Shown here: positions 22,802 to 27,036 of the stretch, piece after piece | How positions within the stretch are numbered: the first letter of the stretch is position 1 | Layout: every line of letters begins with the position of its first letter | Assembly (NCBI RefSeq): GCF_019646055.1 | Contig: NZ_JAESFE010000001.1 | Location: forward strand, 418,466-450,465 | Length of the DNA: 32,000 bases | Origin: Sodalis sp. CWE | GTDB taxonomy: Bacteria; Pseudomonadota; Gammaproteobacteria; Enterobacterales; Enterobacteriaceae | Direction: 5' to 3' | Translations under genes and position numbers: made by a program | Notes under the pieces: generated by a model | Told to the model about the DNA's origin: nothing | What the model saw: the letters and a program-made list of their open reading frames with translations, nothing else | Databases searched by the model: none

Positions 22802-24199
22802 ATGCAATGTAAAAAATCTTTCCCATTCAATCAAACAGACACTATTGCTGCTCTTGCCACTCCACCAGGGGTTGGAGGAGTGGGTATTTTACGTGTTTCT
22901 GGATCGTTAACTGTTCAAGTGGCTCATGCATTACTCGGAAGAGTTCCCAGTCCTCGACAGGCCGAATATTTACCATTTCGCAATAAAAAAGGTGAAACGA
23001 TTGATCAGGGAATTGCGATATTCTTTCCACATCCTCACTCCCTTACAGGAGAGGATATCTTGGAATTACATGGGCACGGAGGCCCAGTTGTACTCGATTT
23101 GCTGTTAGAGCATATTGTTGGAGTACATGGAGTACGTATTGCGCGCCCTGGTGAATTTTTAGAACGCGCTTTCCTTAATGACAAGCTAGATTTAGTTCAA
23201 GCTGAAGCTGTCGCTGATCTTATCAATGCCAGTTCAGTTCAAGCTGCACGTTTAGCAGTAAATTCATTACAAGGTATATTTTCCAATCATATTCAAGAAA
23301 TAGTCAAATCAATTACTAAATTGCGCATTCATATTGAAGTGGATATTGATTTTCCTAACGAAGAAAAAACTGACTATTCTTTATCTAAAGATAAAATTAA
23401 CACGGATCTAAATAAAATTATTTTTCAACTTAATCAAACGTATGACAAAGCGAATCAAGGCAATTTACTGCGCGAAGGAATAAAAGTAGTAATAGCCGGA
23501 AAACCAAATGTCGGTAAGTCCAGTTTACTAAATATCCTGGTTGGACGTGAAGCAGCAATTGTCACTAGTATTGCTGGTACGACGCGCGACGTTATAAGAG
23601 AAAATATCCATATTAACGGAATACCATTAAATATTGTTGATACTGCTGGGCTTCGAAAGACTAGTGATGAAATAGAACGCATTGGCATTGAGCGAGCTAA
23701 AGCCGAAATTGAACAAGCAGATCATATACTTTTTGTTGTAGACAAAACCGTTACATCTCTTAATGATTTAAACAAACTCAGTTCTGAACTTATTAATTTT
23801 TCTCAACCCATGTCAGTACCAGTCACCATTATACAAAATAAAGCAGATCTTACTGGAGAAAATGTTAGATGTAGGAAAATAGGTAATCATCCCTGCATTA
23901 TTTTATCAGCACGATCTGGTGCAGGAGTAAATCTATTGCTTTCTCATTTGAGAATGAGCGTTGGTTTTAAGAAAAATATAGAGGGAATTTTTCTAACCAG
24001 ACGTCGTCATTTGCATGCATTGAAAGCAGCCATTTTCCATTTACAAAATGGAAGGAAACAGTTATCGACTAATCACTTTCATGAATTATTAGCTGAAAAT
24101 CTTCGTTTAGCGCAACAATCTTTAAATGAGATTACTGGTGAATTTAAAACTAATGATTTACTTGACGAAATTTTTTCCAAATTTTGTATTGGAAAATAA
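22802..24199 (+). CDS. mnmE: tRNA modification GTPase MnmE (TrmE/ThdF)
   Basis: 465-aa ORF collinear with E. coli MnmE (454 aa). Shared blocks [72 protein letters not shown]-domain G.PN.GKSSLLN and DTAGLR, and C-terminal FCIGK. Confidence 0.96.
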
Positions 24200-24300
24200 T
24201 GCTTATCTTTAATTAAGATATATAAAATAGTCATTAAGAGGTTAATTCCATTAAGAAAAGTCGCTCTTATTTTAAATACTATCAAGATAAAACTTTTCTG

Positions 24301-24325
24301 AAATAAAAAAGCAGCTAATTAGCTC
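24301..24325 (-). terminator. weak candidate terminator after bamC
   Basis: The minus strand reads TGA(stop) TTATG AGCTAATTAGCT GC TTTTTTATTT: a 12-nt perfect palindrome (24313-24324) followed by a T-rich run. The usable stem is only 4-5 bp. Confidence 0.25.
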
Positions 24326-24329
24326 ATAA

Positions 24330-24644
24330 TCATTCGCAATAACAATCTAGGTGAAAATTGTCTAAAGGTTCTAGTGATTTTGGAGGTCTAATATCTAGTT
24401 TTTTGCCTATTTTACCATTATATAGAACAGTAGGAATTTCGTAATCATTGTTATATTCCGGTAAGAAAATTGAATTAGGTAAATAAATAAGTGCCCGCAA
24501 AGAAGGTGTTTGTAAATATCTTTCGTGATCATTCGCTTGGGTATTACAATCATAATGATACAAAGAGCATGACTCAGTTAACATAGTCACGCTTGCTAAA
24601 GCAAGCGCTAGCTTTGATATCCGAAAAATGAATATTTTAAACAT
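24330..24644 (-). CDS. bamC: truncated outer-membrane assembly lipoprotein BamC (NlpB), N-terminal BamD-binding segment only
   Basis: 104-aa ORF 21 nt downstream of dapA, the position bamC/nlpB occupies in E. coli. It has a signal peptide plus Cys (..VTMLTESC). YLQTPSLRALIYLPNSIFLPEYNNDYEIPTVLYNGKIGKKLDIRPP aligns with E. coli BamC [45 protein letters not shown]. E. coli BamC is 344 aa; this ORF stops 14 codons after DIRPP. Confidence 0.7.
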   Translation of the reverse strand: MFKIFIFRISKLALALASVTMLTESCSLYHYDCNTQANDHERYLQTPSLRALIYLPNSIFLPEYNNDYEIPTVLYNGKIGKKLDIRPPKSLEPLDNFHLDCYCE

Positions 24645-24665
24645 AACATAAGTTCTCTAGAGAGT

Positions 24666-25586
24666 TTAAATTAAACCTGCGTGTAATAATGCTTTCTTTA
24701 GTATAAGACGCCCAGATTTCTTTAGTGAAGTCATTGGCAGGCGTAGTGTATCCTTTTCAATTAATCCTACTACTTTGCAAGCCCACTTAATAGGTATCGG
24801 ATTAGTTTCATAAAAAAGATTGCGATGTAAAGGTATCAACTTTTTATTAAGACATCGTGCTTCGGCTAAACTACCTCTAGCAACTAAAGTGCAAATTTTT
24901 GCTATTTCCTTTGCTGCGACATTTGCAGTTACGGAAATTACTCCTTTGCCACCTAATTGCATAAAATCTAATGCGCTTTCATCATCACCGCTCAAAAGTA
25001 TAAAATTATCACTAACTAACTCTTGAATTTGATTAACGCGCTTCAGGTCTCCTGTTGCATCCTTAATACCAACAATATTTTTAATATTTGCTAAACGAGC
25101 AACGGTAGATGGCAAAATATCGCAACCGGTTCGTATTGGAACATTATATAAAATTTGCGGTAGGTCACTGTTTTCAGCAATAGCCTTAAAATGATAAAAA
25201 AGTCCTTTTTGATTTGGACAATTGAAATAAGGAGTAACAATAAGATATCCCATTACACCACTATCATTAAATCTCTTAGCTATTAAAATTGCTTCGTTGG
25301 TAGAGTTTGTACTTATTCCGCTAATGATAGGAATACGCCCTTCACTAATTTCAATGGACCAAGTTACTAGTTTATAATATTCCTCATGAGTGAGAGTAGA
25401 TATTTCTCCAGTTGTTCCTGCTATCACAATTGCTGTGGTACCACTTTCAATATGGTAATTAATCAGTTTGTTCAAACTGATCTGATCAATAGCACCATAC
25501 TCATTCATCGGAGTAATCAAAGCAACTAAACTACCCTTAAGGTAAGTTATCATTGATTTTTTATTATCAATTAAAGAATACGACAT
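24666..25586 (-). CDS. dapA: 4-hydroxy-tetrahydrodipicolinate synthase
   Basis: 306-aa ORF collinear with E. coli DapA (292 aa). Shared blocks TPM.E.G, GTTGE..TL.H.E, RIP.I.G.. and [70 protein letters not shown]. By alignment the true start is probably the internal ATG at 25553 ([16 protein letters not shown]); neither ATG has a clear SD. Confidence 0.94.
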
Positions 25587-26053
25587 TGGCTGCTTTTAAA
25601 AATAAAAAATTCATTGAAATCATCCGTCAATATAGTTTCACTGAAATAATCAAAACTTATTGTTTAATTTCGCTTCGAAATCTTAATTGAAAAAGAGAAA
25701 TCTTTACTCTGTTGATTTAGTGAAAGGTTACTTATTTGTTACCAGAATATATATAGATCTTTTTAAGAAAATTTAGTTGTTAATTTTACTGTACATTTAC
25801 AGTTTTTTCTCTCTCTGATGAAAAATTATTTCATCTTTCGTTCCAGTAAAAATTTATTTATAGTGCAAAGACTACGCTAAAAATGTTTTCTAAACATACG
25901 TTCGCATTTATTTTTTATCCATGGTATCATATAATCTTTATCCCATAAATAAATAAAGTAATCTGTCAATTTGCTCTTACATATTAAGAAAGCAGTTAAA
26001 AAAAGAAACAAAATTTTGATGGTTTTTCTTAAATCAAATAAATCAAAAGTTAA

Positions 26054-26073
26054 CTCTCTCTTAAAAGAGAGAG
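26054..26073. repeat. 20-nt near-perfect palindrome CTCTCTCTT-AA-AAGAGAGAG
   Basis: 9-bp arms with 4 G:C pairs, read directly. It is immediately followed by the palindrome AGCTAGCT. It lies mid-spacer between dapA and upp. Confidence 0.55.
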
Positions 26074-26791
26074 CTAGCTTTGTATGGTTGCATCTTCTTC
26101 ATTGCGATTTAATTAAAAAGTAAGTTTTAGAAAAAATTTCTCGAAAACAAAATTAAAAGTTTTATTAGTTTCTAATTTATATCTAATAAAATTAGATTGA
26201 TACGTGCATAATTTACATGTTAATACGAATCCGCGCCACGACAACTGAAATACAATAATATTTTGTATTTTCTCTTTTCTAGAAGAGAATTAATTCCAAT
26301 TATTTTACTAACAATTGCTAGATAATTTTTTCTATTATAAAATAGAATTTTTATGCAGAATTTAGTTGACCCGATTTTGCTACCTAAAAAATTTAGTGTA
26401 TAAATTATAATTTAGCTGATAATATAATTTTGCTTTAAACTATCTATTTTAGACTTTACGTGAAATAACATTTTTAGTTATTTTGAATATTTTTCACTAC
26501 GTTCTTTCTTTACGAGAAATCAGAAAAAATTTTAAAGTAAGCCTGTACAACCTATTATTTGAATAAACAATTCCAGTTATAAAAGATATTTTCTTTTAGT
26601 CAAAAGAATAAATATAATAGGAGCTAATAGTTTTTTTTAATTAAAAAAGCACTGAAATTATTTCAAAGCGTTTCTTTTTAAAAGAAAAATATAACAAATT
26701 TAGACAATTAAAAAATTTACATTGATGTTTAAAAAATATTAAAATAATAAACTTGTTTCAAACAATATTGAAAGCAATCTACTAGCGTAAC

Positions 26792-26834
26792 TTTGCTCTT
26801 TTACATATAAAATTTTATGTTGCAAAAGAGCAAA
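26792..26834. repeat. extended interrupted hairpin (11 bp + 5 bp)
   Basis: TTTGCTCTTTT (26792-26802) pairs with AAAAGAGCAAA (26824-26834), including 4 G:C pairs. The inner stem is ACATA (26803-26807) / TATGT (26816-26820), with a 3-nt bulge TGC. It lies about 200 nt downstream of the upp stop, and no U-run follows on either strand. Confidence 0.5.
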
Positions 26835-27036
26835 AGTAAAAAGTTAATAACAATTAATAACGCTTTATTTTAGAAAAATTTTGTTAATGATACGTTGGCT
26901 CTATTAAAAACTAATAAAATTATTTCTTAATAATAAGAAAATAAAAAAATAAAAGACATTTATTAATAAATTTTTTGAATATTTTAATGGAAAAACAATT
27001 AATGATTTGTCTTAGTAAAGATTTAAAAATTAGAAT

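Follow-up and report, generated by a model that had tools for sequence, protein, structure and literature searches.

The gene that follows dapA in Sodalis sp. CWE has been reduced to a short open reading frame, here called bamC′, that encodes the signal peptide, the cysteine and the BamD-binding ‘lasso’ of BamC followed by a brief tail, and we lean towards the view that it is a working minimal BamC. We also consider it likely that the conserved unit of function in BamC is the lasso, that a lasso-only lipoprotein of ~60-120 aa is a natural form widespread in Gammaproteobacteria, and that at least six independent insect-symbiont lineages, including Buchnera, have converged on it, losing one helix-grip domain or both as purifying selection preserved the BamD-binding segment. 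Because cut-down forms of BamC recur under selection in many bacteria, the lasso looks like the part of the protein that matters. The ORF was brought to attention by a sequence-only reading of the window (the whole 32,000-nucleotide stretch of DNA that was analysed), whose main claims are taken up where the results bear on them.

The bamC′ locus

The sequence-only reading had described a 104-aa ORF directly downstream of dapA, with 130 bp left before the convergent mnmE stop. Both statements are exact, in that the ORF lies on the same strand as dapA after a gap of 21 nt and the remaining 130 bp occupy positions 24200-24329 (Table 1). The stop, which had been placed 14 codons beyond DIRPP, is by our count 16 codons beyond it. 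The first ~9 residues of the resulting tail are similar to BamC residues ~88-97, and the last 7 (HLDCYCE) have no counterpart. No strong ribosome-binding site was seen ahead of bamC′. A pattern scan found no terminator after its stop, and a small hairpin with a T-run noticed there by eye is no better than shuffled sequences (z 0.48).

Table 1. Features of the bamC′ locus, with positions counted from the first nucleotide of the window
Feature	Positions	Strand	Remarks
bamC′ ORF: signal peptide, Cys, BamC lasso and 16-residue tail	24330..24644	-	104 codons; ATG start; TGA stop at 24330-24332
bamC′ signal peptide, residues 1-25	24570..24644	-	n-region with K3, R8 and K11; hydrophobic core LALALASVTML
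Degenerate lipobox T-E-S-C, residues 23-26	24567..24578	-	Cys26 aligned to the invariant lipid-anchor Cys
Lasso, residues 27-88	24381..24566	-	ends in GKKLDIRPP; from alignment and PMC5056442 (lasso = E. coli 32-85)
16-residue tail beyond PP	24333..24380	-	from alignment
dapA-bamC′ spacer, 21 nt	24645..24665	-	weak GAGA stretch resembling a Shine-Dalgarno sequence, ~9 nt ahead of the ATG, judged by eye
dapA, 4-hydroxy-tetrahydrodipicolinate synthase	24666..25586	-	Pfam DHDPS, E 2e-102; conserved upstream partner of bamC
Spacer, 130 bp	24200..24329	.	23% GC, non-coding composition; site expected for the helix-grip domains and purC
mnmE	22802..24199	+	convergent to bamC′

In free-living relatives purC follows bamC and mnmE does not adjoin it. 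Given that the 3′ end of bamC′ abuts mnmE of the yidC-mnmE cluster, a rearrangement breakpoint falls within the 130-bp spacer, which is the junction of the rearrangement or deletion that joined bamC′ to mnmE.

Homology to BamC

The claim that the ORF matches the N-terminus of BamC is borne out by profile and pairwise comparisons that agree on E. coli residues ~11-86. With the Pfam model PF06804 (NlpB/DapX), bamC′ reaches 33.5 bits (cut-off 25), and the match is confined to the N-terminal region of the model (positions 2-55 of 323), as the HMM check proposed in the sequence-only reading had anticipated. The NCBIfam BamC equivalog NF008674 is matched at positions 13-86 of 345 with 57 bits, far short of its cut-off of 371 for the full-length protein, and a phmmer search against BamC chains of the PDB (E 6e-7) places bamC′ residues 10-89 on E. 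coli BamC 11-86. From these extents, bamC′ comprises a signal peptide, a Cys aligned to that of BamC and the sequence up to GKKLDIRPP. All near-invariant lasso positions are kept, namely Y43, L49, L52, P56, L61, P62, Y68, K81, D84, I85, P87 and P88. By its family-model match and its slot directly after dapA, bamC′ belongs to BamC/NlpB, with a score short of that expected of a full-length equivalog; and with an ORF that ends no more than ~20 residues past PP, and no helix-grip DNA, it belongs to the lasso-only mini-BamC forms described below.

Compared with the 344-aa BamC (NlpB) of E. coli, bamC′ has the same slot after dapA, a signal peptide, a lipid-anchor Cys and the lasso (~32-85 in E. coli), including the motifs YL, LP, Y-IP and GK-LDIRPP. 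It differs in being without both helix-grip domains (~250 aa), in carrying T-E-S-C rather than L-A-A-C, and in having convergent mnmE rather than purC as its next gene. A search for homologues of similar length with the bamC′ ORF as sole query returned only bamC′ itself, and the same search with an alignment as query returned at least 13 short proteins, a number limited by the word matching of the search. In an AlphaFold2 monomer model (alignment A1; pTM 0.28), the signal peptide alone is predicted as a confident helix and the rest as disordered. The absence of a globular fold in this model fits a segment that becomes ordered only on BamD.

Loss of the helix-grip domains

The sequence-only reading held that the helix-grip domains had been deleted physically and not merely frameshifted, and our searches sustain this. 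Searching the 130-bp spacer by tblastn with 20 full-length BamC proteins gave no match, and neither tblastn nor a custom HMM of full-length BamC, run on the six-frame translation, turned up a C-terminal BamC fragment in the rest of the 797-kb genome. The one weak match that appeared repeatedly was rejected, as it falls inside mreB/mreC.

The surrounding region has been similarly emptied. Other genes lost from a 20-kb ancestral-like region, as represented by the free-living Sodalis-like relative G005, include purN, purM, uraA, bepA, bcp, gcvR, purC and others, and tblastn detected no trace of them in the Sodalis sp. CWE genome. By contrast, codons 9-89 of bamC persist in the same tblastn comparison at E 2e-12 and with no stop. 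Among the ancestral neighbours gone without a tblastn trace are purC downstream and gcvR, bcp and bepA upstream (24200-24329, 25587-27000).

Partners and a proposed role for the lasso

The Sodalis sp. CWE genome (797,418 bp in two contigs of 594,011 and 203,407 bp) is the published genome of the Sodalis-allied endosymbiont of the feather louse Columbicola wolffhuegeli, in whose description BAM is not discussed (PMC8173840). BamA, BamD, Lgt, LspA, Lnt, LolA and LolB are intact, which means that the cell has both a BamA-BamD core and a pathway that takes lipoproteins to the outer membrane. BamB (TIGR03300) and BamE (PF04355) were not found in this genome. The BAM machine of Sodalis sp. CWE is BamA-BamD plus the lasso ORF, and the earlier suggestion of a BamD-capping peptide, which presupposed that bamA and bamD had survived, keeps its intended partners.

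Structures of BAM show BamC ordered only over the lasso (residues 32-85), which lies on BamD (PMC5056442), its globular domains being mobile or not visible (PMC5056442; PMC13067283). Many BamC chains in the PDB hold just 56-67 residues. Kim et al. 2011, cited in PMC3359395, showed that BamC contacts BamD through its N-terminal segment. Since the lasso is the ordered, BamD-contacting part in these structures, the likeliest model for bamC′ is a peptide, anchored by lipid or at any rate exported, that would cap or stabilise BamD. In this model, bamC′ would be exported by means of its signal peptide, probably anchored at Cys26 and sorted to the outer membrane, where a disordered lasso of ~60 residues would wind around the TPR surface of BamD within a BamA-BamD core left without BamB and BamE. 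The lasso might stabilise or tune BamD, or the contact between BamA and BamD, and the two helix-grip domains would have been dispensable and lost when the locus was joined to mnmE by deletion or rearrangement. Homology confined to the lasso, physical loss of the domains, presence of the partners and the lipoprotein pathway, and selection on this architecture in other lineages are established, and we infer expression, lipidation, BamD binding and current selection of bamC′ in Sodalis sp. CWE.

Lasso-only BamC in other symbionts

Among about 400 genomes surveyed from the same GTDB family, BamC in reduced genomes falls into three size classes: the full protein (~345 aa), the lasso with the first helix-grip domain (~211-266 aa) and the lasso only (76-141 aa). 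No trace of BamC was found in 95 of the 401 genomes sampled, and most of these 95 genomes are tiny. Lasso-only BamC occurs in at least six other symbiont lineages, each time with a canonical lipobox: Pantoea sp. Aalb (82 aa, with purC starting 107 bp past the stop), Ca. Hartigia pinicola (89 aa), Ca. Curculioniphilus buchneri (83 aa), the Blochmannia of Polyrhachis (86 aa), Buchnera (84-86 aa) and the secondary symbiont of Heteropsylla cubana (90 aa). In a DapA tree, the truncated forms fall in separate supported clades beside relatives with full-length BamC; the tree is a quick, single-gene one with many unresolved forks and was used, together with organism names, solely for the separateness of the truncated forms. 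A pairing of Sodalis sp. CWE with G165 in this tree (support 81) may be due to long-branch attraction and is not relied on.

Codon models were fitted to two of these lineages. In the Buchnera genus (that of G326, two members of which are named Buchnera aphidicola at the source), the ORF is kept between dapA and convergent dapE in 35 of 37 species and is open in 33 of those 35. The 28 aligned ORFs with an ATG start encode 76-91 aa with an L-I-T-S-C-type box, and all except one stop a single residue beyond PP. A maximum-likelihood fit (GY+F3X4, 28 taxa, a tree of 16 substitutions per codon) gives an omega of 0.255, with a 2dlnL of 191 against omega = 1; dapA, for comparison, gives 0.050. In the Blochmannia genus (that of G169), lasso-only BamC of 86-117 aa is kept in 11 of 16 species, with an omega of 0.217 under the same model and a 2dlnL against omega = 1 of 114. 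The 10 species from hosts other than Polyrhachis also share a conserved tail of 17 residues past PP that ends in S-C-L-I-N-I-E-D. Lasso-only BamC is therefore under purifying selection in Buchnera and Blochmannia. Pairwise Nei-Gojobori dN/dS values for Buchnera were noisy (0.1-0.9) and distorted by AT bias, and were dropped in favour of the maximum-likelihood codon models.

A second line of evidence comes from bamC loci caught in the course of decay. In 11 such loci with visible 3′ debris, there are no stops in the first 88 codons and 47 in the aligned downstream codons, with 10 downstream stops in each of two loci. The product of the per-locus probabilities under uniform placement is 8e-12, a figure that covers all loci from the stop-tolerant searches, some of which might share ancestry even though their stop positions differ.

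These symbiont ORFs resemble bamC′ in length (76-117 aa), in their place after dapA, in ending 1-18 residues past PP and in the deletion of the helix-grip domains. They differ from it in their canonical lipoboxes and in that purifying selection has been measured directly for Buchnera and Blochmannia. Several of the short symbiont proteins are already named BamC in NCBI annotation, the Buchnera lasso ORFs carry the label hypothetical in GenBank, and BamC has been listed as lost in Buchnera (PMC3246468). Inventories that score BamC as absent from Buchnera need correcting. Our literature searches found no description of lasso-only BamC.

Short lipoproteins in genomes of free-living size

Short forms also appear to occur beyond the symbionts. 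We inspected the dapA loci of 20 genomes from different families of Gammaproteobacteria, 18 of them without a Pfam BamC match and two with weak matches only. In 12 of the 20 loci, the gene after dapA encodes a lipoprotein of 58-145 aa; its lipobox is canonical, and its lasso-like motifs run up to PP. When 11 of these mini-lipoproteins are combined into a profile, it aligns with the enterobacterial lasso profile over 67 columns from Cys to PP (hhalign probability 96.9%, E 1.8e-10), a score to which the signal peptide contributes part. Like bamC′, these proteins occupy the slot next to dapA, carry lasso-like motifs up to PP and show profile homology to the lasso. Unlike bamC′, they are encoded in genomes of free-living size, where the short form is apparently the normal state and not a recent truncation, and they are missed by PF06804. 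Pfam-based censuses thus overlook short BamC forms.

A working gene or a remnant

Considering these findings together, the earlier proposal that selection keeps exactly the BamD-binding segment has strong support as a general rule, given the omega values for Buchnera and Blochmannia, the placement of stops in the 11 decaying loci and the mini-lipoproteins. For Sodalis sp. CWE itself, the support is indirect and comes from composition, relative divergence and the erasure of neighbouring genes. It is on this ground that the main rival must be met, which is that bamC was cut by the event that brought mnmE alongside and that the remaining 315 bp are a non-functional 5′ piece, a young pseudogene that owes its conservation to earlier selection on the full-length gene. 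We regard this account as possible, though doubtful. A large deletion made in one step leaves no debris that could be dated, and a single recent event could spare an intact 5′ piece. The coding density of the genome is also low (66% in ORFs of 150 aa or more), so gene remnants are not purged at once. In addition, of the BAM lipoproteins of E. coli, BamC matters least and its loss is mild (PMC13067283). The absence of a BamC trace from 95 sampled genomes of the family and of a terminator or strong ribosome-binding site at bamC′ also weigh against a working gene.

Several features of bamC′ nonetheless speak against a dead gene. The frame is open for 104 codons in a genome of 31% GC, and its GC content at codon positions 1/2/3 is 0.40/0.33/0.23, compared with 0.46/0.36/0.23 in the genome's long ORFs and 0.23-0.24 in non-coding DNA, a gradient that indicates that the ORF has not relaxed to spacer composition. 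From Cys to PP, bamC′ is 56% identical to its counterpart in the free-living relative G005 (DapA 67%), and its lasso/DapA divergence ratio of 1.3 shows no acceleration, lying within the 1.1-1.9 of genomes with intact BamC. Relatives G112, G190 and G106 have ratios of ~3.3-3.6, and this faster evolution of the lasso shows that relaxation does occur in this clade, which lends the pseudogene account some weight. It is countered by the erasure of all other dead genes of the region, by selection for the same truncated state in other lineages and by the avoidance of the lasso by stops in the decaying loci.

The lipobox

The most troubling feature of bamC′ is its lipobox, which the sequence-only reading correctly called degenerate: T-E-S-C has Glu at -2 and Thr at -3. 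Glu at -2 is barred by the PROSITE PS51257 lipobox rule. The genuine lipoproteins of the genome, as represented by Lpp, LptE, BamD (M-S-S-C) and one further lipoprotein, have canonical lipoboxes, and this disparity also favours a pseudogene. With T-E-S-C in this position, the lipidation of bamC′ and hence its function are uncertain. The Cys column is invariant in the BamC lasso alignment, and bamC′ is probably anchored at Cys26, subject to that uncertainty about lipidation.

The substitution is neither large nor peculiar to this genome. The Glu codon (GAG) is one change away from the GCG (Ala) of G005, and position -2 is variable in this clade (A, E, T, P, G, S, L). Glu occupies it in four Sodalis-allied symbionts (Sodalis sp. 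CWE, G106, G190 and G167), as L-L-E-A-C or T-E-S-C. In G106, G190 and G167, the lasso is still open and the sequence downstream is decaying, an arrangement that speaks against the pseudogene account.

Readings other than a minimal BamC or an undecayed remnant are, taken together, improbable in our estimation. One of these holds that the altered box blocks Lgt/LspA and that the lasso is functional as a periplasmic peptide released by signal peptidase I, or as one tethered to the inner membrane, that still binds BamD. The recurrence of Glu at -2 in four symbionts with open lasso frames, the variability of that position in the clade and an A-L-A motif ahead of Ser18 in the signal peptide would all suit such a peptide. 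We know of no functional BamC lasso that is not a lipoprotein, all other lasso-only forms examined have a canonical lipobox, the Cys column does not vary and the hydrophobic core before A-L-A is short, all of which makes this alternative quite unlikely. It is less plausible still that the DNA is kept for a nucleic-acid role, such as a dapA 3′ end, mRNA stability or a promoter, and not for its protein. The ORF lies 21 nt from dapA and is probably co-transcribed with it, but conservation is at the amino-acid level at positions common to all BamC lassos, codon-position GC is coding-like and no significant RNA structure or terminator was found.

Implications for the function of BamC

BamC has been called the ‘most mysterious’ BAM lipoprotein (2026 review, PMC13067283). 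Its knockout in E. coli is nearly silent, and its globular domains are rarely resolved. Genome reduction offers a natural deletion series, in which the helix-grip domains go and the lasso stays, even where BamB and BamE are gone as well. The retention of the lasso in so many lineages indicates that capping or stabilisation of BamD by this segment is the selected activity. This leads to the prediction that a lasso-only allele supplies what BamC supplies in sensitised E. coli backgrounds.

A comparable arrangement has been described for BamF of alphaproteobacteria (Anwari et al. 2012, PMC3359395), a small BAM lipoprotein whose disordered N-terminus carries a motif related to the N-terminus of BamC. 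We liken it to bamC′ by its description, the shared idea being a short, membrane-proximal docking segment. BamF differs from bamC′ in belonging to another family (DUF3035) and another lineage.

Other truncated forms of BamC

A second truncation, to the lasso plus the first helix-grip domain (~211-266 aa), is also recurrent (G015, G020, G060, G124, G151, G157, G126, G082 and G007), with Ca. Profftia and Ca. Providencia siddallii among the examples. In G151, purC begins 25 bp past the stop of such a gene. The size classes suggest that the loss of BamC is stepwise and proceeds domain by domain from the C-terminus.

Two further cases come from genomes of 0.8 Mb. In G167, the flanking dapA and purC are frameshifted pseudogenes, and the lasso frame of bamC is open (133 aa) with six stops downstream. 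In G082, a 220-aa BamC with the lasso and one domain lacks any lipobox Cys that could be recognised where the alignment would place it, shows only 26% lasso identity and may be a decaying or re-purposed copy.

In a sample of the class, many families have BamC proteins of ~190-250 aa whose match to the Pfam model is limited to its C-terminal helix-grip part (e.g. G506, G549, G469 and G498). Two unpublished genomes in this sample (G577 and G499) add two full-length cases to the tally, and no claim made here depends on them. The G506 protein, for instance, matches model positions 1-38 plus 206-318. One-domain BamC seems to be common outside Enterobacterales.
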